A DNA stretch of 33,985 nt from Candidatus Micrarchaeales archaeon (GCA_049520335.1 JBEKPX010000001.1:1-33985); one strand, 5' to 3'. Shown: positions 4,836 through 26,758, numbered from the stretch's first letter. The notes: a model not told the origin generated them from the letters alone. Numbers and translations: made by a program.

Positions 4836-5771
4836 ATGGCTTCTATTGAGAATCAAAGAATACAGCCAAACGGCAAGACACTAAGCCTTATCGCGGGCAC
4901 CACAATCTGCCAAGCGAAATGCCCATTCTGCATCTCTAAAACCACACCGTTCCAAGGAATGGGTCCGAAGCTGGAGCCTATAAACAGCGAGAAGCTAGAG
5001 AAGGCCTGCCAGCTTGCAGGAAAATTCGGAATCAGAAATGCCATGATAACAGGCAAGGGAGAGCCTACATTATATCCTGAACATATAGAGAAATATCTTA
5101 GAACTGTCGGAAAATATCCTTTTGGTAGCATCGAACTGCAGACAAACTCCATCTCTTTCGGTACTCATCCAGAAAAGTATGATTCTCTCTTGAAAAAGTG
5201 GCGAGAGATGGGACTTGCACTGATCGCCATCTCCATCGTGCATTATGAATATGAAAAAAATAAGCAGATTTATACAGCCAATAAGGATTACATAGACCTT
5301 CCTACTATTATCGGAAAGTTACATGACATTGGCTACCAAGTCAGACTGAGTTGCACGCTAATCAAGGATTATATTGATAACGTGGCTCAGATGAGGAAGA
5401 TGATAGCGTTTGTCCGGGAACATGAAGTTGAACAACTGACTCTACGAAGGATGGAAGCCGTGGAGAGAAGTCAAAATTCAGATGTCTCCGCATGGACAAA
5501 GCCCAGGATAGTTAGTCAAGAAGTCATGGATGAGATGCTTGCAGATTTGGATAAGCATGGAACTAGAATGGCTGAGTTCTTCTATGGTGCAGCATTATAT
5601 AAATATGGAGAAGATAAGCAAAATGTGTGCTTAACTACAGGCATTAGCGACAATAAGGAAAAAGAGGGTGATATAAGGCAGCTTATCTTCTTCCCTTCAG
5701 GGAAGCTAATAACTGATTGGAGATACAGTAGTGAAGCTGAGAATCAGCCGGTAAACGGAGTGAAGATATAG
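4836..5771 (+). CDS. Radical SAM enzyme, single [4Fe-4S] cluster, no SPASM-type auxiliary Cys cluster, subfamily unassigned
   Basis: CQAKCPFC (CxxxCxxC) at residues 25-32, followed by ITGKGEPTLYPEHI (GGEP-like SAM-binding motif). 311 aa with only three further Cys residues. Confidence 0.85.
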   Translation: MASIENQRIQPNGKTLSLIAGTTICQAKCPFCISKTTPFQGMGPKLEPINSEKLEKACQLAGKFGIRNAMITGKGEPTLYPEHIEKYLRTVGKYPFGSIELQTNSISFGTHPEKYDSLLKKWREMGLALIAISIVHYEYEKNKQIYTANKDYIDLPTIIGKLHDIGYQVRLSCTLIKDYIDNVAQMRKMIAFVREHEVEQLTLRRMEAVERSQNSDVSAWTKPRIVSQEVMDEMLADLDKHGTRMAEFFYGAALYKYGEDKQNVCLTTGISDNKEKEGDIRQLIFFPSGKLITDWRYSSEAENQPVNGVKI

Positions 5772-5778
5772 TGAGTAT

Positions 5779-6747
5779 ATGCCAAGGCGGAAACTTGTAA
5801 CTTTGGCAGAAACAGTGCCTGGAAAAGCAATAAAGGAAACGATAGGAGTTAGAGCTTATTATATGTCAGAGGTTCAAAGGGAGATTTCACTGCTTGCGAA
5901 AGACTATCCCACGTCAACATACCTTAAGCCACTGACGCCTGACTTGGATGAATTGCACAAGCCAGTGATCGACGCTTACCTGAGAAAATTTGGTCCTCTT
6001 TTCAAGGGAATAGAAGGTTACAGATGGCAATATCCTACTGCAGGCTCAAGTGAGGCAATATTCCACATTCTTGCTGGCATCAAGTCGAAGCATCCGGATG
6101 CAGTGATATATACGCTGAAAGGGGAATATGAAGGATATAGGGAATATTCTAAGCCTCTTGGGCTCAGGACAATGGAAGTGATTAAAGTCTCTGATGCAAA
6201 GACGCCAGGATATTGGTTCATATCGAACCCATCTGCAAGGGACGGTAATCTGCTTGGGGAAGAATTGATTGGAGACATCTGCGATGCAGGACACAAGATA
6301 GTGTATGACGCCACCTATGTTGGGTGCGTCCCGCGTTTCGTGGTAGATCTGTCTAATCAGAACATAGTGGCTATTCTAGCCTCGATGAGCAAACCCTTCG
6401 GAATGTTCTACTACCGCGTGGGGTTTGCCTTCACTAGAGAGGAGATGGGCTCGCTCTTTGGGAATAAATGGTTCAAAAACATTTTCTCCTTGCTTGCCGC
6501 ACAAAGGATAATAGAGAAGTTCGGGCCTGACAAACTCGTTCCTAAGTACAAGAAACTGCAGAGAGAGGTGGTTGAGGAGCTGAAGAGAAAGACAGGACTT
6601 CCGATTGTGGCGAGCGACGTGTTCCTCATCGCTACCATAAACAAAAAAGCCGCGACCAGGGAGCAACTCGAACAAGTGCAGATGTGGAAGCGTGGAGATG
6701 AATATAGAATTTGCCTTACTCCCTACTTCATGAGCATGGAGAAATAG
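5779..6747 (+). CDS. Fold-type I PLP-dependent enzyme, class I/II aminotransferase-like (HisC/CobD-sized)
   Basis: Motifs FISNPSARDG (NPxxxxG), VYDATYVG (D-x-x-Y) and SMSKPFGMFYYRVGFAF (S-x-S-K Schiff-base Lys plus R-x-G). 322 aa; starts 7 nt after the radical SAM stop. Confidence 0.75.
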   Translation: MPRRKLVTLAETVPGKAIKETIGVRAYYMSEVQREISLLAKDYPTSTYLKPLTPDLDELHKPVIDAYLRKFGPLFKGIEGYRWQYPTAGSSEAIFHILAGIKSKHPDAVIYTLKGEYEGYREYSKPLGLRTMEVIKVSDAKTPGYWFISNPSARDGNLLGEELIGDICDAGHKIVYDATYVGCVPRFVVDLSNQNIVAILASMSKPFGMFYYRVGFAFTREEMGSLFGNKWFKNIFSLLAAQRIIEKFGPDKLVPKYKKLQREVVEELKRKTGLPIVASDVFLIATINKKAATREQLEQVQMWKRGDEYRICLTPYFMSMEK

Positions 6748-6748
6748 G

Positions 6749-6756
6749 TATAAAAG
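6749..6756 (+). promoter_or_regulatory. TATA box candidate (TATAAAAG) for the giant surface protein gene
   Basis: Centred about 26 nt upstream of the ATG at 6778. It begins 2 nt after the stop of the PLP-enzyme gene. Confidence 0.4.
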
Positions 6757-6777
6757 AGTCCATTGTTTTTTAGTATC

Positions 6778-9700
6778 ATGAATAGGCAGAAGCTAACTTT
6801 CATTGCATTTATGTTAGTCCTTTTTTTGAGTGCACTGCCAAGAACAGCTAAGGCACTAAACAAATATTGCTGCGACCAAGACTCTACTTCATGTGCAATT
6901 CCTGATACTTTTACATGTACTTCGGCGTGCGATGGATTTAAACAATGTACCCAATTGGGAACGTGCACCAGCGTATCCAGTTGTCCTCATGGCGGCACTA
7001 CCACAACAACCACTTCCACAACAACCTCAACATCAACCTCAACAACCACATCAACCTCAACAACCTCCACATCAAGCTCCACCTCCACATCAACCACAGT
7101 CACAACCAGTATCGACACAGGATGCAGCGTCGACACTCCACTCTGCTGCGGTGGCAGTAGTCTCTCATGTGACTCTACTGCAATATGTCATTCGTCGCCT
7201 TGCTCAAGCCCTGTCCCATATCACTGCGGTGGTAGCCTTTGTTCAACATCAACCTCAACAACCACATCAACCTCAACCAGCACATCAACCTCCACTTCCA
7301 CATCAACCACGGCCACAACCACAATCGGATACATCTACTGCATCGGCAATGGCGCAGTATCTCCATACAATTACGTCTACTATGCGCCAATCTCCAACAC
7401 AGGCATAGGCACATGGACCTCCACCACGAGCTATCCGGTTTGGATGTGGAATGCAGGCTGCTCGATCTACAGCAGTTACATCTATTGCGTCGGCACTAGT
7501 AACGGAAATCAAGCCTACTATGCACAGATCTCAAGCACGGGCGTAGGCACATGGACCTCCACCACGAGCTATCCCATCAACATGTGTGAGGCAGGCTGTT
7601 CGGTTTATAATGGTTACATCTACTGCGTCGGGACTAACTGTGACGCATGGTGGCTTGCCTACTACGCCCCCATCTCCAACACAGGCATAGGCACATGGAC
7701 CTCCACCACAAGCATCGCATCTGAAAGATTATACGATGCAGGCTGCTCAATCTACAACGGATACATATACTGCGTTGGTGCTTATGCTAATCCGTACTTT
7801 CACTACGTCTACTACGCGCCAATCTCCGGCACAGGCATAGGTTCATGGACCAACACCCCAAGCTACCCGATCGACATGTACTATGCAGGCTGCTCAATCT
7901 ACAACGGATACATATACTGCGTAAGCAGCGGTTCGTATCCAAACACTTATCAGGTCTACTATGCGCCAGTCTCCAGCACAGGTGTAGGCACATGGACCTC
8001 CACCACACGCTATCCCATTGCAGACATGGAGGAAGCAGGCTGCTCCATCTCCGGAGGTTATATCTACTGCGTCGGTACTAGTCAAACCACTCCATATAAC
8101 TATGTCTACTATGCGCCAGTCTCCAGCACGGGCGTAGGAACGTGGACCGCCTCCCCAAATACCTATCCAATTAGCATGTATGCTGCATACTGCGAGATAC
8201 CGGGTTCCGGAGGAGGATATTATGGCGGGGGAGGGAACCTGCCTTTTTGGACGCCATTCATATCCGCAAGCAACGCTTTGGTGGACATCGGCCAATATGA
8301 GACTTTGAAAATCTCATGGCCTGGAGGCTCCGCACCTTTCACTGTGAAATTCTACAACGAGTCAAATTCATTAACCTTCAACACGCTCGGCAGTCTCCTG
8401 CTCTCAGATTCGCCGGCGACCAACACCTTCAAGCTGGTAACCACAGGCGGAGGCATAACATGGAACGGGGTAGTGGTCGACTCATCGCCGGCGACGAAGA
8501 ACTCGATTGACTTGCATATAGGAGTAAATTCGGCCATAACAGGAACACCAGCAACTCCAACACCGACATCACCTACAATAGATAATGGACAGAGTATAAC
8601 TCTTACAGCTGGAACTGGAACTGTCTCAGGAGGCACAACTCCATACACCTATAATTGGTTCACGGGCACAGCTTGCCAAACCTTAACCGCAGGAACAGGA
8701 AGTAGTGTAACAGTATCTCCAACTTCGACAACAGGATACAGCGTGGAAGTAATGGACTCTGCCTCCACACCTGCAAATTCAGTGTGCTCGGGAGTAGACA
8801 CGGTGACTGTAACCACCCCATCACTCTCTGTGCCTACGATTGCTGCGAGCAATACAATGGTGGATGCAGGCCAGTACGAGACACTAACCATATCATGGTC
8901 AGGAGGTACCTCGACGTTCAAGGCAAAGTTCTTCAATGAGTCTGATTCTGGAGGAGTGACTTTCAACACAATTCCAGGTGCGACATCTCCAACGACCAAC
9001 ACTTTCATAGTGCTAACTCCGGGTGCTCATACAGGCTATACCTGGAACGGAATCGTAATAGACTCTGCATATTCTCCACTGACAAAGACTTCTCTTGATT
9101 TGCACATAGGCGTGAACTCCGCCCTTACGGACACACCGTCGATATCTCCTTCCGCGCCAACAATAGACAGTGGGCAGAGTGTAACATTGTCAGAGTCAGG
9201 AGTCTCAGGAGGCACTACACCTTATACCTACAACTGGTTCACTGGTTCTGGCTGTGGGACTGCAAACATAATCTCCGGGCAGGTAGGAGGCTCCATATCA
9301 GTCTCGCCAACAACGACTAACAGCTACAGTGTGAATGTGATAGACTCCGCTTCCACTCCTGCAAATTCAGTATGCTCTTCGGTAGACACAGTTAGTGTGA
9401 ATACAGCTCTCTCAGTCCCTTCCCTGACTGGAACTTCCTCACTTAATAATGGTCTTATTCAGACTCTCAGTGGAACATGGAACTATGGCACACCTCCATT
9501 CACAGTCCAGTTCTACAATGAGTCAAAGCCAGGCATTTTCAATACGTTGGGGAGTGCCACATCGCCATCAACCAACTCATTCCTAGCATACGCAGTTGGA
9601 AGCACTCAGTCATTCACTTGGAACTTCATAGTGACAGATTCATCATATCTCTCAGCAGTGACGAGGAACAGTGTTGATTTCCAGTTCAGTGTGATACCAT

Positions 9701-10077
9701 CAACATGTACATTCACAAGCCCGTCAACACTATCTTTCGGAGATATAGGACATGGATTTAGCACTATTACTACGAGTGTGCAGCTGCAGATTACTAACAC
9801 AGGAAATACAAACTCAAATATCCTAATTTATGGAGGAAATTGGATAGGTCAGAAGACTGCCACAGCAAATTTCATGGTAATGAACACAGTCTGGACTCCG
9901 ACTTCGGGTGTAGCAATTGCTAACGCAAACCAACTAACATATTCCCCTAGCTATGACACATTTGTGACCGTCCCTGCTAGTGGAGGAACAGGCTCTATAT
10001 ATTTAGGGCTATCAGTTCCACAATACCAAGCGCCACAGGACTATAACCAGATAATAACAGTATCAAGCAGCTGTTGA
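6778..10077 (+). CDS. Giant secreted modular surface protein (1,099 aa): signal peptide, two 8-Cys modules on Thr/Ser stalks, six-blade Kelch-like propeller, tandem Ig-like modules, C-terminal module shared with two downstream paralogues
   Basis: The ORF track starts at TTG 6763. ATG 6778 gives a canonical signal peptide, MNRQKLTFIAFMLVLFLSALPRTAKA|LNKY. Domain content was read directly from the translation (see repeat features). Confidence 0.85.
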   Translation: MNRQKLTFIAFMLVLFLSALPRTAKALNKYCCDQDSTSCAIPDTFTCTSACDGFKQCTQLGTCTSVSSCPHGGTTTTTTSTTTSTSTSTTTSTSTTSTSSSTSTSTTVTTSIDTGCSVDTPLCCGGSSLSCDSTAICHSSPCSSPVPYHCGGSLCSTSTSTTTSTSTSTSTSTSTSTTATTTIGYIYCIGNGAVSPYNYVYYAPISNTGIGTWTSTTSYPVWMWNAGCSIYSSYIYCVGTSNGNQAYYAQISSTGVGTWTSTTSYPINMCEAGCSVYNGYIYCVGTNCDAWWLAYYAPISNTGIGTWTSTTSIASERLYDAGCSIYNGYIYCVGAYANPYFHYVYYAPISGTGIGSWTNTPSYPIDMYYAGCSIYNGYIYCVSSGSYPNTYQVYYAPVSSTGVGTWTSTTRYPIADMEEAGCSISGGYIYCVGTSQTTPYNYVYYAPVSSTGVGTWTASPNTYPISMYAAYCEIPGSGGGYYGGGGNLPFWTPFISASNALVDIGQYETLKISWPGGSAPFTVKFYNESNSLTFNTLGSLLLSDSPATNTFKLVTTGGGITWNGVVVDSSPATKNSIDLHIGVNSAITGTPATPTPTSPTIDNGQSITLTAGTGTVSGGTTPYTYNWFTGTACQTLTAGTGSSVTVSPTSTTGYSVEVMDSASTPANSVCSGVDTVTVTTPSLSVPTIAASNTMVDAGQYETLTISWSGGTSTFKAKFFNESDSGGVTFNTIPGATSPTTNTFIVLTPGAHTGYTWNGIVIDSAYSPLTKTSLDLHIGVNSALTDTPSISPSAPTIDSGQSVTLSESGVSGGTTPYTYNWFTGSGCGTANIISGQVGGSISVSPTTTNSYSVNVIDSASTPANSVCSSVDTVSVNTALSVPSLTGTSSLNNGLIQTLSGTWNYGTPPFTVQFYNESKPGIFNTLGSATSPSTNSFLAYAVGSTQSFTWNFIVTDSSYLSAVTRNSVDFQFSVIPSTCTFTSPSTLSFGDIGHGFSTITTSVQLQITNTGNTNSNILIYGGNWIGQKTATANFMVMNTVWTPTSGVAIANANQLTYSPSYDTFVTVPASGGTGSIYLGLSVPQYQAPQDYNQIITVSSSC
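6997..7110 (+). repeat. Low-complexity ACN/TCN codon run encoding Thr/Ser stalk 1
   Basis: Encodes TTTTTTSTTTSTSTSTTTSTSTTSTSSSTSTSTTVTTS after the first 8-Cys module. It generates several spurious overlapping ORFs in other frames. Confidence 0.9.
7243..7323 (+). repeat. Low-complexity codon run encoding Thr/Ser stalk 2
   Basis: Encodes STSTSTTTSTSTSTSTSTSTSTTATTT after the second 8-Cys module. Confidence 0.9.
7324..8199 (+). repeat. Six tandem ~47-50-aa Kelch-like beta-propeller blades
   Basis: Six repeats of the pattern AGCS(I/V)Y.GYIYCVG....(Y/A)YYAP(I/V)S.TG(I/V)GTWTSTTSYP. The repeat is also visible in the DNA as a 141-150-nt periodicity. Confidence 0.75.
8239..9690 (+). repeat. Tandem ~193-aa modules (two full copies plus one half copy), each a pair of Ig-like beta-sandwich domains
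   Basis: ISASNALVDIGQYETLKISWPGG (nt 8260) matches IAASNTMVDAGQYETLTISWSGG (nt 8839), a 579-nt period. SGGTTPYTYNWFTG and DSASTPANSVCS occur in both full copies. The third copy (from about 9406) has only the first half. Confidence 0.8.
9694..10077 (+). repeat. C-terminal ~127-aa module, copy 1 of 3 (other copies at 10296-10676 and 10906-11286)
   Basis: STCTFTSPSTLSFG...ITNTGNTNSNILIYGGNWIGQKTATANFMVMNTVW...YNQIITVSSSC-stop aligns end to end with the mature parts of the two short ORFs. Confidence 0.9.
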
Positions 10078-10172
10078 AGTATTGAGGTGCAATCTAATAT
10101 GCAGTTTTGCGGTAAGAAAAGTACACATATGCAACTTGTGGTGAGGAAATAGAAAAAGAGAATACTACGACT

Positions 10173-10676
10173 ATGCCAGAATCTATTTTGGTAGTCATCA
10201 CAGCGTTGTTTGCAGTCATAGCACTGTTTACAGTTACTGAATTCCTATACGGCGCTGGAAATAGCATAACGCCAACTGGAACTGTTACTGTTGTATCACC
10301 ATCGTCATGTACATTCTCAGAAAGCACAGAGACACTGGCTTTCGGAAGTATAGCGCAGGGATTTAGCATTTCAACTACCTCAGCGCTGACAGTAACTAAT
10401 AGCGGAAATATGAATTCCAATATCCTAGTTTACGGAGGAAATTGGGTAGGTCAGAGAGATGCCACGGCAAATTTCATGGTAGGGAATACTGTCTGGTCAC
10501 CGATTTCAGGTATAGCGTGGGCTAGCGCAAACCAACTGACATACTCCCCTAGTGTTGATACGCAGATAGCTGTTACTGCTGGAGGAACAAATACAATATA
10601 CTTTGGGCTAGCGATTCCGGCATACACGCCACCGCAAAGCTATAATCAAATAATAACGGTATCAAGCAGTTGCTAA
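10173..10676 (+). CDS. Short paralogue 1 of the giant protein's C-terminal module (candidate fibre subunit); N-terminal hydrophobic segment
   Basis: 167 aa: MPESILVVITALFAVIALFTVTEFLYGAGNSITPTGTVTVVSPSSCTF...NILVYGGNWVGQRDATANFMVGNTVW...YNQIITVSSSC-stop. Confidence 0.85.
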   Translation: MPESILVVITALFAVIALFTVTEFLYGAGNSITPTGTVTVVSPSSCTFSESTETLAFGSIAQGFSISTTSALTVTNSGNMNSNILVYGGNWVGQRDATANFMVGNTVWSPISGIAWASANQLTYSPSVDTQIAVTAGGTNTIYFGLAIPAYTPPQSYNQIITVSSSC

Positions 10677-10779
10677 ATATTGAACTGAAACTCAGTATGC
10701 AGTTCCACAAATAAGAAAGTTATTAAAGATATTCATCAGATGTCTATCAGGCGAGTAATGTAGGAGCTGCGGTGATGGA

Positions 10780-11286
10780 ATGAAGAAAGAAAATACTGTA
10801 ACAATGCCAAAATTTGTTTGGGTATTCATCATAGCGTTGTATGTGATTGTTGGGTTCCTGTATGCTGCTGGAAACAGCGTAACGCCAACTGGAACTGTTA
10901 CGGTTCCGAACTCATGTACATTCGGAGGAAGCCCGTCAACACTATCTTTCGGAAGTATAAGCGCAGGTACTAACATAGGGACGACCGTGTTGCTGACGGT
11001 AACTAACAACGGAAATATAGACTCCAATATCCTCGTTTACGGAGGGAACTGGGTAGGCCAGACGACCACCACGGCAAATTTCATGGTAGGAAATACTGTC
11101 TGGAATCCTACGACAGGTTTAGCGTGGGCTAGCGCAAATAAACTAGACTACGCTCCTAGTGTTGATACGCAGATAGCTGTTACTGCTGGAGGAGGAACAG
11201 GTTCTATATACTTTGGGCTAGCAATTCCAGCATACACAACACCACAAAACTATAATCAAATAATAACGATATCAAGCAGCTGCTGA
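10780..11286 (+). CDS. Short paralogue 2 of the giant protein's C-terminal module (candidate fibre subunit)
   Basis: 168 aa: MKKENTVTMPKFVWVFIIALYVIVGFLYAAGNSVTPTGTVTVPNSCTF...NILVYGGNWVGQTTTTANFMVGNTVW...YNQIITISSSC-stop. An alternative start is ATG 10804. Confidence 0.85.
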   Translation: MKKENTVTMPKFVWVFIIALYVIVGFLYAAGNSVTPTGTVTVPNSCTFGGSPSTLSFGSISAGTNIGTTVLLTVTNNGNIDSNILVYGGNWVGQTTTTANFMVGNTVWNPTTGLAWASANKLDYAPSVDTQIAVTAGGGTGSIYFGLAIPAYTTPQNYNQIITISSSC

Positions 11287-11322
11287 ATGATGCATTATGA
11301 AAGAAAGCAGTTATGTTTATAA

Positions 11323-11991
11323 GTGCGTACTATGCGGATGAAAGGGGCAATAGGGATAACTCTAATAGCAATAATTTTAACTGCCAGTATTGTGTACGCT
11401 GGATTTGGAGAGATAGGAGGAGTATTGAATTTTGCTCTATACCCAAATTCCTCCCAAACATTGCAGTGGGGCCTAATAAATGACGGAAATCAAAGCTTGT
11501 CCTTTACAATAATGAACAAATCATCCGATTTCCGGCTCCAAGCTCAAAACAATCTATCCATTAATGCAACCCCAGATATAACTTTTTATTCTTCTTCATG
11601 GAGCATTCCTCCAGATACCACAGAGTACGTAAATGTAACTGTTTCTTCACAGGGTCTGAAAGTCGGCCAAAAATGGCATGGACTGATTCAAGCGCTTGCG
11701 ACACCGTCAGGAAATTCTTCTAGCGGAGCAAACATACAACTAGGAACGGTAAAGATGTTTAATATAAACATAGTACAAACAACAACGACCACATCTACCT
11801 CTACAACCACCATTCCCACTACCGTTTCCCCAATAGTACCGCCACAGTTGAATGTGCAATTTGAAACGCTGCTCATTATAGTGGTTGCTGCAGTTGTTGT
11901 TATCGTTATAGTCTATTACTTAATACTAAGAAAGCACACGAAAAAGACAAATGTTGAAGAGAATAGAAAAAAGACAACGAAACGAAAGTGA
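11323..11991 (+). CDS. Membrane-tethered beta-rich surface protein: N-terminal signal/anchor, Thr-rich stalk, C-terminal TM helix with basic tail
   Basis: The GTG start in the track is probably too early; ATG 11332 or 11338 (MKGAIGITLIAIILTASIVYAG...) is more likely. VQTTTTTSTSTTTIPTTVSP precedes the TM segment LLIIVVAAVVVIVIVYYLIL and the tail RKHTKKT...KRK. Confidence 0.75.
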   Translation: MRTMRMKGAIGITLIAIILTASIVYAGFGEIGGVLNFALYPNSSQTLQWGLINDGNQSLSFTIMNKSSDFRLQAQNNLSINATPDITFYSSSWSIPPDTTEYVNVTVSSQGLKVGQKWHGLIQALATPSGNSSSGANIQLGTVKMFNINIVQTTTTTSTSTTTIPTTVSPIVPPQLNVQFETLLIIVVAAVVVIVIVYYLILRKHTKKTNVEENRKKTTKRK

Positions 11992-12040: not shown

Positions 12041-13081
12041 CTATTTTCTTCCCTTTCTTGATCTGTTGCTTCTCAGACCCCTAACGCCCACAGCAGCAAC
12101 AGCAGTTGCCACTGCTATGCCTATGGCTATAAAAGATATAAGCGTGCTTGTCGTTGGACCTGATACTGAGGGCAGTATGACTATCGGAGCATCATTTCCA
12201 TAGCTATATGTTGCCACTTGACCAGCGCCTCCTGCTCCACCAGTTCCTGTTTGATTATAAGGCGAACCTACTGTCCCCCCTGCAACGTCATATGTTCCAG
12301 CAATATATCCGCCAGAGCCGTAAGATAGCATTATGACTCCTCCTCCTGAACCTGCACCGCCTGGGTCCCACGGCTCACCGCAATACTCGCTTGAATCGTT
12401 GCCATTTATGCCCACCGCATTTATCATTCCTGCTGCTATTTTATTCGCTTGTATGTAAACTCCATAAGTGCTTGCCCCAGAGTAAGGACATGGGTGAGTT
12501 CTGCCCCCGGTGCTGCTGTCTTGTCCTCCACCGCCTCCAGAAATATAATTCTGAAAACCGCTACTGTACCAATTTATTATATTATCTTTTGACATGAAAG
12601 GCACATTCGGGGTTGATCCGTTACCTCCACTTGCCGTATTAATATCAGTGTATGCTCCTCCTGCAACTAAAGTGTTCCCACCATTACCAGAATAAAAACC
12701 GCCAGCGCCGCCCCAACCAGAACCTCCACCTCCTCCAGATCCGCCAAATGAAGATGGAAAAGAAGTACCCTGCGAACCCGCATAAAGCTTAGGTCCGAGA
12801 GCATCATTTCTGTACCCGGTTGTTATTACACCGTTATTTGTTACTGTGCCGCTGCAATAGATATTGAAACCATTTGTGTTTAAAGTAACTCCCTTGTAAA
12901 TTGTAAGGTTGCCGCAAATTAAATCGCTTACTAAGGTAGTATCCGAAGAAATGACAACATTTGTATTAGCCGCCTTGTAGTAAAGTGCTGGGTTAGCTGA
13001 GACAGATCCGAGCAAAAAGACAAACACAAGACTGAAAAAGAGCCCATTCTTCAGCACATTTGATGATTTTAGCATGAACAC
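12041..13081 (-). CDS. Glycine-rich secreted protein with C-terminal TM anchor and Arg/Lys tail
   Basis: Signal peptide MFMLKSSNVLKNGLFFSLVFVFLLGSVSA. Long Gly-rich tracts (GGSGGGGGSGWGGAGGFYSGNGG, GGAGSGGG, GTGGAGGAGQ). C-terminus LISFIAIGIAVATAVAAVGV-RGLRSNRSRKGRK. Confidence 0.75.
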   Translation of the reverse strand: MFMLKSSNVLKNGLFFSLVFVFLLGSVSANPALYYKAANTNVVISSDTTLVSDLICGNLTIYKGVTLNTNGFNIYCSGTVTNNGVITTGYRNDALGPKLYAGSQGTSFPSSFGGSGGGGGSGWGGAGGFYSGNGGNTLVAGGAYTDINTASGGNGSTPNVPFMSKDNIINWYSSGFQNYISGGGGGQDSSTGGRTHPCPYSGASTYGVYIQANKIAAGMINAVGINGNDSSEYCGEPWDPGGAGSGGGVIMLSYGSGGYIAGTYDVAGGTVGSPYNQTGTGGAGGAGQVATYSYGNDAPIVILPSVSGPTTSTLISFIAIGIAVATAVAAVGVRGLRSNRSRKGRK

Positions 13082-13239: not shown

Positions 13240-13341
13240 AGCCGCCGGCGAGGATTGAACTCGCGACCTTCTGCTTACCATGCAGACGCTCTTTAGTGCC
13301 CGAATCCCTTAGAGACTGAAGTACCACTGAGCTACAGCGGC
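13240..13341 (-). tRNA. tRNA-Thr (anticodon GGU) interrupted by a 30-nt D-loop intron
   Basis: Reverse strand: GCCGCTG-TA-GCTC-AGTGGT[30-nt intron]A-GAGC-G-TCTGC-ATGGTAA-GCAGA-AGGTC-GCGAG-TTCAATC-CTCGC-CGGCGGC-T. It has a 7-bp acceptor stem (one G-U pair). The mature length is 72 nt and no CCA is encoded. Confidence 0.8.
13293..13322 (-). other. Non-canonical tRNA intron (30 nt, position about 20/21) within a bulge-helix-bulge motif
   Basis: Outer helix GCTC:GAGC (the D-stem). Central 4-bp helix AGTG (exon):CACT (intron). The 3-nt bulges are GTA (5' side) and AAA (3' side). The inner helix is weak (C-G, U-G, U-G). Exact splice points are ambiguous by one A. Confidence 0.7.
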
Positions 13342-23230: not shown

Positions 23231-23302
23231 AGTTAGAGGAATGCATGAAAGAATTAAATAGCTTGGAAGAGATTGAGTAGTGTCACTGCATTCGGGGGTC
23301 TG

Positions 23303-25609
23303 ATGATCAACTCGATAGAGCTCAAGAACTGGAAGACACACAAGAGCACGAAGCTCAAGTTTGCAAAGGGCACTAACATACTGCTTGGTCAGATGGGCTC
23401 TGGAAAAAGCACAGTGATGGACGCGATCTCGTTTGCGCTTTTCGGCACCTATCCTGCTATACAACACAGGAAAGTCGCTGTTGACGAAATAATAATGAAC
23501 AGGCCCGAACAGGAGAACAAGGCCAGCGTAAAGCTAGAATTTGGGATAGATGATGTTGCTTATGTTGTCGAGAGGAGTCTTGAGCGCAGCGGTTCGACTA
23601 AAGCGACAATCTCGAAGAACGGAGCTTACATGCAGTCACAGCCACAGAGGGTGAATGAGGAGATAGAACGAATGCTCAAGGTGGATTACGACCTCTTCTC
23701 GAGAGCAATATACTCGGAGCAGAACAGACTTACATATTTTCTGGAGCTGAGGCCCGCCGAAAGGAAGAAGCAGATAGACCAGCTGCTGGGACTGGATAAA
23801 TTCGCGCTCGCGCAGGAGAACTCGACCACGCTGATAAACAAGATAAAGGACATCGTCGGGGAGAACGAGAAAACGATAGCAACTTTTGACCTCGAGAAGC
23901 TAAAGGAACAGCATAAACTCATGCTTGAAGAGATTGAGAAGCTTGCGGATGTGAAGAAGGAACTCGAGGAAGATATCAAGAAGGAGGGGAAGAACAGAGA
24001 CTGCGTGGAGAAAACGCTCAAGGAGATAAAAGATTCTTACAACAGGAAAATTCAACTCATTAAGGAGATTGCTGAATTCAAGAGCAAGATTGATGTCATC
24101 TCGAAGGAAATCGGTAAGATAGAGAAGAGGGAGATTGGTGACAGAAAGCTCTTGGAGAAAAAGATTTCTGGGGCGAAGAATAGCCTTGATGAGCTAAGGG
24201 GGATCGAGAAGGATGCTGCTGATAGTGAAAGGGGCTCGCTCAAGGAACTCGCGCATGTTGAGGAGGAGATGAAAACTGCAAAAAAAGAAAGCGAGGAGAA
24301 GGAAGAGTTGAGAAATGAGCAGGGGAAGAGGAATAGAACTGACGTTGAGGAGAGTGTGAAAAGAAGCTCGGACGGGCTGAAGGAGCTTAGCAAGGATTGC
24401 GAGGCGGATCTCGCAAGCATGAAAGAGAGCCAGAGATGGCTCGATGAGCTCAGGAAGCATTGGAGCAAGTGCCCGGTCTGCGAGAGGGAGCTCAGCGAGG
24501 AGATGCGAAACAGGATACTCGAGGAGAGGAAAGGGGAGGTCGAGAGGCTTGGCGGGCAAATCGAGAAGCAGAAGGAGAAGATAGAGAAGTTTGAGAAAGA
24601 GCTCGAAAAGAGCAAAAGCGAACTTGAGAAGATCAACAGAATAGAGGAGAAGCTAAAGGAGCTTGAAGGCACAGAGAAGAAAGTGAAAGATATCGAGGGT
24701 AAACTCAAGATTGCGAAAGAGATGAGTTCTACCCTGAAGAGGAAGAAGGAGGATGCTACTAATGCGGCTGCGAAGGCGAAGGATATGCTCACGAAGCTTG
24801 AACAGGAGAGAGAGGCGATTGAGAGGATGGAGGGGTATATCTCTGAGAAAGAGAAGTGCTCCGTGCTGCTCAAGGAAAAGGAGCAGGCTGCTGCGAAGAT
24901 AGAGACTGATGAGGACGAGATTGAGAAGACTCAGAAGGAGCTCACCTCGCTAGACGTGAGGCTCAAGGAGCTTGCAACAAAGCTTGATGCCAACTCCATG
25001 TCAGATAAGGAGAAGAATGCCTTTGAGAAGGAGAAGAAAAAAGAGATAGAAGCGGTAACCGGCATCCAGGAGAGTGTCAAGAGGAAGAAGAGAGCAGTAG
25101 AGAACATACTCAAGTTCAAGAGCGCGCTTGAGGAGACACAGATAGCCCTCAGGACAAGGCTGATAGGCTCCATAAACGGCATAATGCAGGAGATCTGGCC
25201 AGAACTTTATCCTTACGGCGATTACCAAGGCATTGAGCTTGAGCCCACATCAGAGGACTACATGCTCAAGGTGAGGACCTCAAGAGGCGGTGAGCAGGTA
25301 TGGGAGGACGTCACTGCAATAGCAAGCGGAGGTGAGAAGAGCGTCGCCTGCCTCGCAATGAGGGTAGCATTCTCACTAGTGCTCGTTCCCAACCTCAGGT
25401 GGATGATACTGGACGAGCCTACACACAACATTGACCAGCAGGGCCTGAGCAAGTTCGTAAAGGCGATAAATGAGGTACTTCCGAGGCTTGTGGATCAGGT
25501 GTTCATAATAACTCACGATGAGACGCTGAAACAGGCAGTCAATGCTAGGATTTACGTGCTTTCTAGGAACAAGGAAGAAAATGGCGGAACGGTCGTTGAG
25601 ACTTATTGA
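23303..25609 (+). CDS. rad50: Rad50-like SMC-family ATPase with zinc hook
   Basis: MINSIELKNWKTH..., Walker A GQMGSGKST, a long E/K-rich coiled coil with a central hook WSKCPVCERELS, signature ASGGEKSVA and Walker B WMILDEPTHNID. The start was placed at ATG 23303. Confidence 0.8.
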   Translation: MINSIELKNWKTHKSTKLKFAKGTNILLGQMGSGKSTVMDAISFALFGTYPAIQHRKVAVDEIIMNRPEQENKASVKLEFGIDDVAYVVERSLERSGSTKATISKNGAYMQSQPQRVNEEIERMLKVDYDLFSRAIYSEQNRLTYFLELRPAERKKQIDQLLGLDKFALAQENSTTLINKIKDIVGENEKTIATFDLEKLKEQHKLMLEEIEKLADVKKELEEDIKKEGKNRDCVEKTLKEIKDSYNRKIQLIKEIAEFKSKIDVISKEIGKIEKREIGDRKLLEKKISGAKNSLDELRGIEKDAADSERGSLKELAHVEEEMKTAKKESEEKEELRNEQGKRNRTDVEESVKRSSDGLKELSKDCEADLASMKESQRWLDELRKHWSKCPVCERELSEEMRNRILEERKGEVERLGGQIEKQKEKIEKFEKELEKSKSELEKINRIEEKLKELEGTEKKVKDIEGKLKIAKEMSSTLKRKKEDATNAAAKAKDMLTKLEQEREAIERMEGYISEKEKCSVLLKEKEQAAAKIETDEDEIEKTQKELTSLDVRLKELATKLDANSMSDKEKNAFEKEKKKEIEAVTGIQESVKRKKRAVENILKFKSALEETQIALRTRLIGSINGIMQEIWPELYPYGDYQGIELEPTSEDYMLKVRTSRGGEQVWEDVTAIASGGEKSVACLAMRVAFSLVLVPNLRWMILDEPTHNIDQQGLSKFVKAINEVLPRLVDQVFIITHDETLKQAVNARIYVLSRNKEENGGTVVETY

Positions 25610-26647
25610 TTACAGCATTCCGAGGCCGAGATTGTTCTCCTCTTCAGATGCCTTTCCTGTGACTGAAGAACCTTCGACACCTGTGAATATGCCTATTATC
25701 TCCACTTTGCCCATGTAGTCAGGGTCGAGCCTCGCACCCCAAGTTACGTTCGCGTTTGTTGCTATCCTGTCTGTCAGCTTGGTTGCTATCTCGTTCGCTT
25801 CACCCAAAGTCAGGTCAGGACCGCCTATTATGTGAAGCAGCACTCCTGATGCTTTTGAATAATCGACATCCAACAGCTTGTTCTTGAGCGTCGAGTTCAC
25901 TGAGTCACCCACCTTGTTCGAGCCCTGCCCGGTTCCGACACTTATCATCGCCAGCCCGCCAGCAGACATTATCGTCCTGACGTCGGCGAAGTCGAGGTTT
26001 ATCAGACTAGGTTGTGTTATGGTTTCGGTTATTCCTCTCACTGCCTTTGCGGTTATCTCGTCCGCGAGCATGAATGTTTTCTCTATAGGCAGGTTAGGGT
26101 AAAGGGATACAAGCTTCTGGTTGTCTATCACTACCACGGTGTCGACGTTCTGCTTGAGTTTTTCGACTCCTTTTCTTGCCGCATCTAACCTGACGCGCTC
26201 TAGGGAGAAAGGCAAAGTCACTATGCCTATGACTATGGCTCCCGCTTCCTTGGCTATCCTTGCGACAACCGGCATCGCTCCGGTTCCTGTCCCTCCGCCC
26301 ATTCCCGCCGTCATGAACACCAGATTCGTATCTTTCAGCAGGAACTCTATATCGTTCCTTGAAAGTTCTGCGCATTTCTGCCCTATCTCAGGGAATCCGC
26401 CTGCGCCGAGGCCATGGGTTATCTCCTTTCCTAGAATCAGCTTTGTTATGTTGGGGTTAAGCATATTCAGATGCTTTGCATCTGTGTTGAAAGCAAAGAG
26501 GCCTGCGCCCTTTATGTCCATCATGCTTAGCCTCTGCACCGTGTTGTTTCCGCCGCCTCCAACTCCGACGACAGCTATCTTCGGTTTGAATAGCTCAAAT
26601 TCTGGAGGAATTGTGCCTTGGGTCGCCTGTTCAGGTGAATCAAACAT
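25610..26647 (-). CDS. ftsZ: Cell division GTPase FtsZ
   Basis: IAVVGVGGGGNNTV, GLGAGGFPEIG, tubulin signature AGMGGGTGTGAMPVVA and T7 loop NLDFADVRTIM. The start was placed at Met 26647 (MFDSPEQ...) rather than 26731. Confidence 0.9.
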   Translation of the reverse strand: MFDSPEQATQGTIPPEFELFKPKIAVVGVGGGGNNTVQRLSMMDIKGAGLFAFNTDAKHLNMLNPNITKLILGKEITHGLGAGGFPEIGQKCAELSRNDIEFLLKDTNLVFMTAGMGGGTGTGAMPVVARIAKEAGAIVIGIVTLPFSLERVRLDAARKGVEKLKQNVDTVVVIDNQKLVSLYPNLPIEKTFMLADEITAKAVRGITETITQPSLINLDFADVRTIMSAGGLAMISVGTGQGSNKVGDSVNSTLKNKLLDVDYSKASGVLLHIIGGPDLTLGEANEIATKLTDRIATNANVTWGARLDPDYMGKVEIIGIFTGVEGSSVTGKASEEENNLGLGML

Positions 26648-26758
26648 TCTACCACCTATTATTCTTGGAAGCAAAACTAAAAAGACTTTCTTATGCCATC
26701 GGATGCTGGAGTTTTGGCAAACCTGCTGCAAATATGCATGCTTGCGCCGCTTGGTAAG

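Follow-up and report, generated by a model that had tools for sequence, protein, structure and literature searches.

A C-terminal module shared by giant and short secreted proteins, and its membrane-anchored PapD-like partner, suggests a lineage-specific surface display system in Micrarchaeota

Chaperone-usher pili (type 1, P and Csu) are built from small Sec-exported subunits, each with an N-terminal alternating strand and an immunoglobulin (Ig)-like body. They carry distally a two-part adhesin whose C-terminal pilin-like domain lacks a donor strand, and they rely on a partner from the PapD-like fold superfamily. In Lactobacillales and Bacillales, the WxL clusters combine a small WxL protein and a large WxL protein, which has the domain at its C-terminus, with a transmembrane-anchored Ig partner (WxLIP, that is, DUF916-DUF3324-transmembrane helix), and strand completion has been predicted there (PMC10599100). 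A third group, the donor-strand fibres made without a chaperone (B. subtilis TasA, the AbpA bundling pili, Sulfolobus threads, Pyrodictium cannulae and haloarchaeal Tat-fimbriae), provides archaeal precedents in which no ATPase takes part, the subunits are exported by Sec or Tat, and the N-terminal donor strand lies right after the signal cleavage site. Here we describe a locus with features in common with all three. It lies in a stretch of 33,985 nt (the window, by which we mean the whole stretch of DNA that was analysed), taken from a contig of a Candidatus Micrarchaeales metagenome-assembled genome (MAG), and includes the locus tags ABSD68_00045, ABSD68_00050 and ABSD68_00055. Each of the properties listed for chaperone-usher pili has a proposed equivalent here, and the three-gene logic of the WxL clusters is found here in identical form. 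By none of the sequence criteria tested does the locus appear to belong to the chaperone-usher, TasA, thread, type IV pilin or WxL families; the likeness to chaperone-usher pili and WxL clusters is one of logic only.

The locus consists of four co-oriented open reading frames (ORFs), and ORF calling confirmed the coordinates given for them in a preliminary description made from the DNA sequence. We consider it probable, with good confidence, that they form part of a lineage-specific surface display system, in which large proteins of diverse kinds are attached, through a C-terminal module, to a core that consists of small module proteins and a PapD-like partner anchored in the membrane. The features are as follows.

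6763-10077 (+): giant secreted 'cargo' protein (ORF call), 1104 aa from TTG 6763 or 1099 aa from ATG 6778
7327-8230 (+): Kelch-like six-bladed beta-propeller in the giant protein (PDB phmmer, DNA repeats)
8260-9681 (+): five Ig-like units of the giant protein, A1-B1-A2-B2-A3 (internal DNA repeats, translation, BLAST)
9706-10074 (+): C-terminal module of the giant protein, first Cys to terminal Cys (alignment, family hidden Markov model (HMM), strand logo)
10078-10122 (+): 3' flank of the giant gene, repeated after short subunit 1 (10677-10721), a trace of local duplication
10173-10676 (+): short subunit 1 (short1), 167 aa, ABSD68_00045 (ORF call, alignment, AlphaFold2 (AF2) model m02468095e70d)
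10780-11286 (+): short subunit 2 (short2), 168 aa, ABSD68_00050, with its strand at 10873-10905 and its module at 10915-11283
11323-11991 (+): transmembrane-anchored partner (TMP), 222 aa from GTG; ABSD68_00055 is the 217-aa form from ATG 11338

The last ~125 residues of the giant protein align with the bodies of short1 and short2 at 58-60% identity. This recurrence had been pointed out in the preliminary description, and every sequence string quoted there was found. Short2 is 76% identical to short1 over the mature part, and the DNA of the three module copies has a mean column identity of 77% (direct-repeat families D2, D8, D9 and D10). The earlier claim that the DNA-level similarity runs on into the 3' flanks stands for the giant gene and short1, whose flanks agree at 32/47 positions in the first 45 nt past the stop (z=5.6 against shuffles), but not for short2, whose flank shows no significant likeness to either (z<=1.4).

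What sets the short copies apart is their N-terminus. Short1 has a signal-like N-terminus (10173-10253), a strand NSITPTGTVTVV (10260-10295) and the Cys-to-Cys module (10308-10673); in both short proteins the hydrophobic N-terminus is followed by AGNS(I/V)TPTGTVTV (repeat D9, 77% DNA identity). Inspection by eye places the hydrophobic segment ahead of AxA-like sites and the strand, and on this ground a class III (type IV pilin) signal was rejected. The strand had been said to have no equivalent in the giant protein, and translation agrees. The family HMM matches giant residues 974-1104 (E~1e-39) only from HMM position 10 onwards, and TRNSVDFQFSV, which precedes the first Cys, forms the final strand of Ig-like unit A3 and has the equivalents TKNSIDLHIGV in A1 and TKTSLDLHIGV in A2. 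The last strand of A3 (NSVDFQFSV) thus adjoins the module directly, and the giant's module has no N-terminal strand of its own.

Searched for exhaustively with a profile, the module turned up in 250 representative clusters at E<=1e-3, 120 of these at 1e-10. Three architectures occur: short proteins (signal peptide, strand, module), tandem proteins of ~320 aa with two modules, and long proteins of 400-2300 aa, which without exception end in the module. The terminal residue is Cys in 146/152 module representatives and in 69/70 module ORFs of the loci that we fetched. Long proteins account for 50/152 representatives, and 14 of these have genes that lie apart from all short genes. Every named match, and all 45 loci in GTDB representative genomes, fall in Micrarchaeota-type MAGs, save for a few bins labelled otherwise (module and TMP genes occur in loci L013, L015 and L029, labelled Marsarchaeota, and in L040, labelled Gammaproteobacteria). 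These probably reflect binning errors rather than horizontal transfer, because the contigs are short and the gene order is typical.

No member of the family is annotated, and we found no published description of the system in the literature. The module has no sequence relationship in Pfam, NCBIfam or the PDB. Profile searches of the PDB with 4 and with 61 sequences gave nothing meaningful, and a lenient Pfam scan of 61 family members gave only scattered sub-threshold matches to beta-sandwiches (GH123_N_2, DUF4402, NEW3 and SCPU). Among these 61 members there was no WxL match even at E<=10, and SCPU was matched by only two, with a best E of 0.23. Pfam and NCBIfam scans of window proteins and family members gave no match of the Peptidase_M73 type, and in eight long family members Pfam identified InlB-B-repeat-like domains in two and nothing else. 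By these criteria the family appears to be both unannotated and confined to Micrarchaeota.

The contrast between short and giant proteins in the window, to which the preliminary description had drawn attention, extends to the family as a whole. The 12 residues before the first Cys follow the motif N-V/I-x-A-x-V/A-N-V-P/Q-x-x-C, conserved both in 86 short proteins and, ahead of module 2, in 33 tandem proteins; the V at position -4 is present in 81-88%. In 51 long proteins, the giant included, the motif is absent (~1 bit per position, no conserved hydrophobics), although the body of the module is equally conserved. P0041, a protein of 1431 aa with two C-terminal modules, has the motif between the modules only. 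Donor extensions in chaperone-usher pili follow the same rule, being present on the polymerising subunits and lacking in the pilin domain of the tip adhesin, and here it is the long proteins that lack the extension (86 short and 33 tandem against 51 long). An ordinary cis core strand would keep its hydrophobic face in the long proteins too; it is not kept there, which disfavours such a strand. As judged from the alignment, the motif would sit only at points from which another module, of the same chain or a different one, could take it up. In the tandem proteins, 5-12 residues lead from the terminal Cys of module 1 to the next strand, and these linkers resemble the geometry of engineered self-complemented (dsc) pilins.

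The module has exactly two conserved Cys, one near its start and one that is its last residue. Of 205 non-redundant module copies, 177 have both, 22 have neither and only one is truly discordant. The double loss is confined to module 1 in one group of tandem proteins, in which module 2 keeps both residues. This pattern fits an intramodule disulfide, since the Cys loss is limited to module 1 of tandem proteins, and for the same reason an inter-subunit disulfide was rejected. In mutual information with average product correction (MI-APC), the strongest covarying pair was columns 20 and 133 (z=8.1), which adjoin the two Cys, and the analysis bore out a contact of the C-terminal strand with the region that follows the first Cys.

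An AF2 model of mature short1 built on a 36-sequence alignment (an earlier alignment of 4 sequences gave a mean predicted local distance difference test score (pLDDT) of 46 and was unusable) has a pLDDT of 79.2, a predicted template-modelling score (pTM) of 0.72 and seven strands. The module is predicted to be a beta-sandwich of ~125 aa, stapled by a disulfide from the region of its first residue to the C-terminal Cys. A disulfide that joins the start of the domain to its very last residue distinguishes the module from chaperone-usher subunits. Residues 1-21, strand motif included, are unpaired in the monomer, as the fibre proposed in the preliminary description would predict; AF2 also predicts the donor strand of TLP-1 to be disordered in the monomer (PMC11494351). 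In a Foldseek search of the PDB, ~30 of the top 50 matches were subunits of donor-strand-exchange fibres, each with a weak score: TasA fibre, Csu, CfaB, FimA, FimG, PapA, Caf1, TLP-1a/b and the PapG pilin domain. Those from chaperone-usher systems (CsuA/B, FimA, FimG, PapA, Caf1 and the PapG pilin domain) had E>=4e-3 and template-modelling (TM) scores of ~0.5. No Sulfolobus thread structure was among the top 50. We regard the enrichment of fibre subunits among these matches to a predicted model as suggestive. The comparison with TasA foreseen in the preliminary description gave a weak positive answer at the level of structure and no match at the level of sequence profiles.

The second constant element is the TMP, a type I membrane protein whose beta-rich ectodomain, Thr stalk and C-terminal transmembrane helix, described earlier, were borne out by translation. 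It has a signal peptide to 11400, a PapD-like/ASH-type Ig ectodomain (11401-11772), the stalk, a transmembrane helix (11869-11928) and a basic tail (11929-11988). We called ORFs in 50 non-redundant loci (numbered with the prefix L), obtained with a tighter subgroup alignment, and searched them with module and TMP HMMs. A TMP homologue lies directly downstream, on the same strand, in 32/32 evaluable runs of short or tandem genes, so this part of the gene neighbourhood, the conservation of which had been raised in the preliminary description, is strictly kept. Such adjacency suggests a physical partnership. Loci L001, L002 and L007 repeat the layout of the window with one to three short genes. 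Long module genes lie just upstream of the short/tandem-TMP core in ~12 loci and are encoded alone in 14; counted by the published definition (PMC10599100), the WxL-type three-gene arrangement is present in the window and ~12 other loci, with the short/tandem-TMP pairing invariant.

The TMP ectodomain is Ig-like, of ~120 aa, with invariant W92, G109, A110, G115 and K118, and the mature N-terminus of the protein is nearly invariant (QLGExAGQP, with G3 and G7 among the invariant residues). Its profile matches CFAP65 (1.7e-7), HYDIN (1.3e-6) and OCRL ASH (7.7e-3) in the PDB. In Pfam, Cep192_D6 is matched by 12/18 members, OCRL ASH by 11/18, WxLIP_PGBD by 3/18, Motile_Sperm by 2/18 and PapD_N by 1/18 (at 0.024), with no match to PapD_C. 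The WxLIP_PGBD match reaches 7e-5 and is not accompanied by one to DUF3324, the TMP having a single domain. On these profile matches we assign the ectodomain to the PapD-like superfamily as an Ig domain of the ASH type. It is unrelated to the module (hhalign, probability 0.4%). The cytoplasmic tails of the TMPs in ~30 loci are very basic: Lys+Arg make up 45% of them and Asp+Glu ~1%. They have a median length of 60 aa and a maximum of 109; the tail in the window is short, at 20 aa.

The differences from the known systems are as clear as the likenesses. Unlike chaperone-usher pili, the locus has no sequence homology to fimbrial or SCPU families, and it comes from an archaeal lineage with no usher and no outer membrane; no usher domain was detected in the larger ORFs of the window or in the precomputed Pfam lists for loci L001-L008. 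The preliminary description had seen no pilus-assembly gene, and this holds: Pfam and NCBIfam scans of the larger window ORFs found no pilus-machinery gene. Unlike type IV pilins, the short proteins show no class III signal on inspection, and no PibD- or PilB-type genes were found in the window. Unlike TasA and the archaeal bundling pili, there is no Peptidase_M73/TasA sequence match and no SipW gene nearby, and no signal peptidase gene was found in the window. Sulfolobus thread proteins are characterised by an N-terminal Asp, a YYY motif and an inter-subunit isopeptide bond (PMC9715654); the mature N-termini here lack a conserved Asp and the YYY motif, and no thread-type isopeptide motif is present. 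None of the chaperone-free fibres has a giant family that shares the C-terminal subunit domain, or an obligate PapD-like transmembrane partner. Unlike WxL clusters, the module carries no WxL motifs and no Pfam match, the lineage has no peptidoglycan and the TMP is single-domain; no counterpart to the tandem modules or the N-terminal strand rule has been described among WxL proteins.

We suggest that donor-strand complementation builds a chain or fibre from these proteins, with the long proteins distal and the TMP at the base, and we put the probability of this at roughly 0.45. It is favoured because it gives a joint account of the strand rule, the tandem fusions, the unpaired strand in the AF2 model and the pilin-rich structural matches; it also accounts for the free C-terminal end and the PapD-like partner. 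The module would be a sandwich that, like a pilin, is short of one strand. Once a short subunit had been exported by Sec and had lost its signal, its N-terminal strand would fill the groove of the preceding module, and repetition among short subunits would give a head-to-tail chain or thin fibre. The long proteins, able to accept a strand but with none to donate, would take the distal end as interchangeable adhesins (in the window, the giant with its Kelch propeller and Ig stalk), and the TMP, as a tethered cap, chaperone or anchor, would keep the proximal end at the membrane. Such a process would need no ATPase, usher or sortase. Its likely role would be attachment to host cells or biofilm matrix in a host-dependent symbiont. 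More tentatively, the locus may be the usher-less archaeal counterpart of a chaperone-usher pilus, polymerised on a tethered single-domain PapD-like chaperone or anchor, capped by any of a genome's many module-ended giants as an exchangeable host-binding tip and used as the symbionts' attachment organelle, though we would not call this probable. Unidentified thin filaments have been reported by cryo-electron tomography on or at Micrarchaeota cells (PMC11329633; PMC8975820). They make the fibre testable without lending it direct support.

Several observations weigh against donor-strand complementation. No sequence-level link of the module to a pilin, TasA or WxL family was found, and Foldseek gave no match at E<=1e-3; the best, TasA fibre, had E 4.4e-3 and TMq 0.44, TM scores overall were 0.44-0.52, all weak, and the remainder of the top 50 were PapD-like/MSP domains and glycosidase beta-sandwiches (GH123, GH3). 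The strand columns have no covariation partner in MI-APC (z<=3.8). The strand of the window's own short proteins, T-P-T-G-T-V-T-V, departs from the family consensus at -8 and -10, and the signal-peptide cleavage at AxA-like sites that would expose it is predicted by eye only. The TMP, a single Ig domain on a transmembrane helix with a polybasic tail, differs from the chaperone of chaperone-usher systems, which is soluble and has two domains, and its QLGExAGQP N-terminus is unlike a strand. Lastly, the three-residue P/Q-x-x turn before the first Cys would permit a simple cis hairpin, and P700, an unrelated family of neighbouring proteins described below, has a mature N-terminus, xLNATVxVxCPF, that resembles the strand-Cys motif of the module; for these two reasons the strand could be an ordinary A strand. 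The preliminary description had proposed a fibre with the giant as tip adhesin and the TMP as anchor. The strand rule, the unpaired AF2 strand, the structural matches, most of them to donor-strand-exchange pilins and TasA, and the obligate PapD-like neighbour speak for that proposal, and the frequency of the module as a common C-terminal domain speaks against it. It had named a common C-terminal domain on many unrelated proteins as evidence to the contrary, and this is in part what we find (50/152 representatives, 14 lone long genes among them).

The chief alternative is a docking platform like that of WxL clusters, with a fixed small stoichiometry, in which the module is a C-terminal attachment domain bound by the TMP. 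The TMP would bind one or two modules, possibly lending a strand or loop, while the small protein stabilises and the large protein displays. Its gene logic equals that of WxL clusters (one small protein made of the domain alone, one large protein that ends in it, and a transmembrane-anchored Ig partner), for which AF2 predicts a WxLIP strand completing the WxL sandwich (PMC10599100); EfmWxLIP1 appears in both the PDB profile search and Foldseek, alongside the matches of 3/18 TMP members to WxLIP_PGBD at up to 7e-5. That many long proteins are encoded alone, and that the same head domain can use a transmembrane anchor or the module, which makes the module an anchor equivalent, also speak for docking. 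We nevertheless judge it less likely than the fibre. Neither a WxL signature nor a match to the Pfam WxL family is seen in the module, the TMP has one Ig domain in place of DUF916 plus DUF3324, and these archaea have no peptidoglycan to bind. A platform would also leave unexplained why the strand occurs only at mature N-termini and between tandem modules, and why there are tandem doubles and one to three short paralogues. The idea that the module is an envelope-attachment domain, offered as an alternative in the preliminary description, stays plausible, because the module is common at C-termini and the same head occurs on a module or a transmembrane anchor; its best-documented form is the Firmicutes WxL-cluster architecture (PMC10599100).

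If the P/Q-x-x turn does form a cis hairpin, the module could be a complete, self-contained sandwich with the N-terminal strand as its own A strand, binding a ligand such as an envelope or host glycan. The last strand of the preceding domain would then substitute in long proteins, which often have a beta-like segment before the first Cys. The short proteins would be soluble or loosely bound lectin-like factors, and the TMP a co-regulated but mechanistically independent surface protein. The C-terminal hairpin 'IYFGL.VP.G..AG.Y.Q.I.I' resembles complete CARDB, NEW3 and GH123_N sandwiches, there are weak Pfam matches in 8/61 and 4/61 members and GH123 and GH3 domains in the Foldseek list, and P700 begins with its similar strand-Cys motif presumably in cis. 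We think this improbable, since AF2 with 36 sequences leaves the strand unpaired in cis, the hydrophobics of the strand are not conserved in long proteins though the surface they would cover is, the strict adjacency to the TMP (32/32 runs) suggests physical partnership, and the need for a free C-terminal end would have no explanation. Least probable is a two-dimensional envelope layer or stalk, like SlaA/SlaB, made of short or tandem proteins and the TMP and decorated by the long proteins. The S-layer protein of Ca. Micrarchaeum harzensis has no evident anchor, and a second, transmembrane-bearing stalk protein has been proposed (bioRxiv 10.1101/2021.04.28.441871). The TMP has the stalk, transmembrane helix and very basic cytoplasmic tail for such a part, and transmembrane-anchored, envelope-like P700 proteins are encoded nearby. 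Against it, we found no S-layer family signature, the subunits are small and their best structural matches are subunits of linear fibres rather than lattice proteins, and the long proteins are many, diverse and adhesin-like. A cleavable C-terminal sorting domain like that of the type IX secretion system is unlikely, since an outer membrane is lacking and the family includes domain-only and tandem proteins.

DPANN archaea such as Micrarchaeota rely on physical contact with a host, and the molecules of that contact are essentially unknown. The locus is a concrete lineage-wide candidate, with a conserved pair of pilin-like subunit and PapD-like partner into which variable giant adhesin-like proteins would plug through a C-terminal domain. 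If strand exchange is true, chaperone-usher-type logic extends to a single-membrane archaeon without an usher, and every protein that ends in the module becomes a handle for finding host-recognition proteins. If a WxL-like platform is true, the locus would give that architecture its first analogue in archaea. Under fibre or platform alike, several hundred 'hypothetical' proteins gain a testable role.

The giant that would be displayed in the window consists, in order, of a signal peptide, two Cys-rich knots with Thr/Ser stalks, the Kelch-like propeller, the five Ig-like units and the C-terminal module, a modular make-up already recognised in the preliminary description (Cys-rich, stalk, propeller and Ig-like parts) and supported by translation, PDB phmmer and DNA repeats. 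Residues 235-439, within the propeller, match IVNS1ABP Kelch domains at 2.5e-4 (PDB phmmer), and its DNA contains six repeats at a spacing of 138-150 nt (families D4-D6). The Ig-like units contain the internal repeats D7 and D11, 579-588 nt apart, and by BLAST recur in other module-bearing proteins. Translation more likely starts at ATG 6778 (1099 aa) than at TTG 6763, because a TATA-like box lies at 6749. That box and a second at 11316 precede ATG 6778 (giant) and ATG 11338 (TMP) by ~25-30 nt, and a third lies at 10709, upstream of short2; together they suggest leaderless transcripts from separate promoters, with starts that differ from those of the longest ORFs.

Convergent with the TMP gene is a further surface-protein gene:

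12041-13081 (-): Gly-rich 346-aa surface protein with a C-terminal transmembrane anchor (BLAST)

Its position is conserved in L001 and, like the giant and short proteins, it has no match to a Pfam or NCBIfam family. In BLAST searches its head was found fused to the module in other proteins: P0030 (6e-27), P0144 (4e-23), L002_804, P0122 and P0132. One head domain on a transmembrane helix or on a module means that the same cargo can be attached either way, and the job of the module would accordingly seem, from these sequences, to be attachment to something cell-bound.

P700 is a fourth recurrent neighbour of the core pair, 650-720 aa long, with a signal peptide, a CARDB-like region, a C-terminal transmembrane helix and a basic tail. 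It is found at L002:3867-5891, L003:6873-9026, L016:2026-3990, L019:3128-5209, L047:9228-11297 and in 13 further loci, and there is none in the window. Its N-terminal domain shows no relation to the module (hhalign, probability 0.2%). P700 may be a protein of the envelope or S-layer type, or may itself donate a strand or act as an anchor. In L003 and L007, a gene for a ParA/MinD-like ATPase separates P700 from the module genes.

The remaining genes of the window are housekeeping genes (ScpA, aldehyde dehydrogenase, IMPDH, radical SAM protein, aminotransferase, PAC2, OMP decarboxylase, Rad50, FtsZ, PolX and GDH). The radical SAM and class I/II aminotransferase-like genes (4836-6747, +) immediately precede the giant gene, in the same orientation and with short gaps; the related locus L001 begins within its giant gene, so that this adjacency is not visible there. 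In L003 (4507-12952), a cluster of P700, ParA, tandem and TMP genes sits between Rad50 and FtsZ, whereas in the window Rad50 and FtsZ are directly adjacent (23273-26731) and the module locus is elsewhere, which indicates that the module locus moves relative to housekeeping genes. At 13240-13341 (-), Rfam gives a 102-nt tRNA match (57.8 bits) that is missing from the ARAGORN output; it is presumably an archaeal tRNA with an intron, which fits the archaeal origin of the window.

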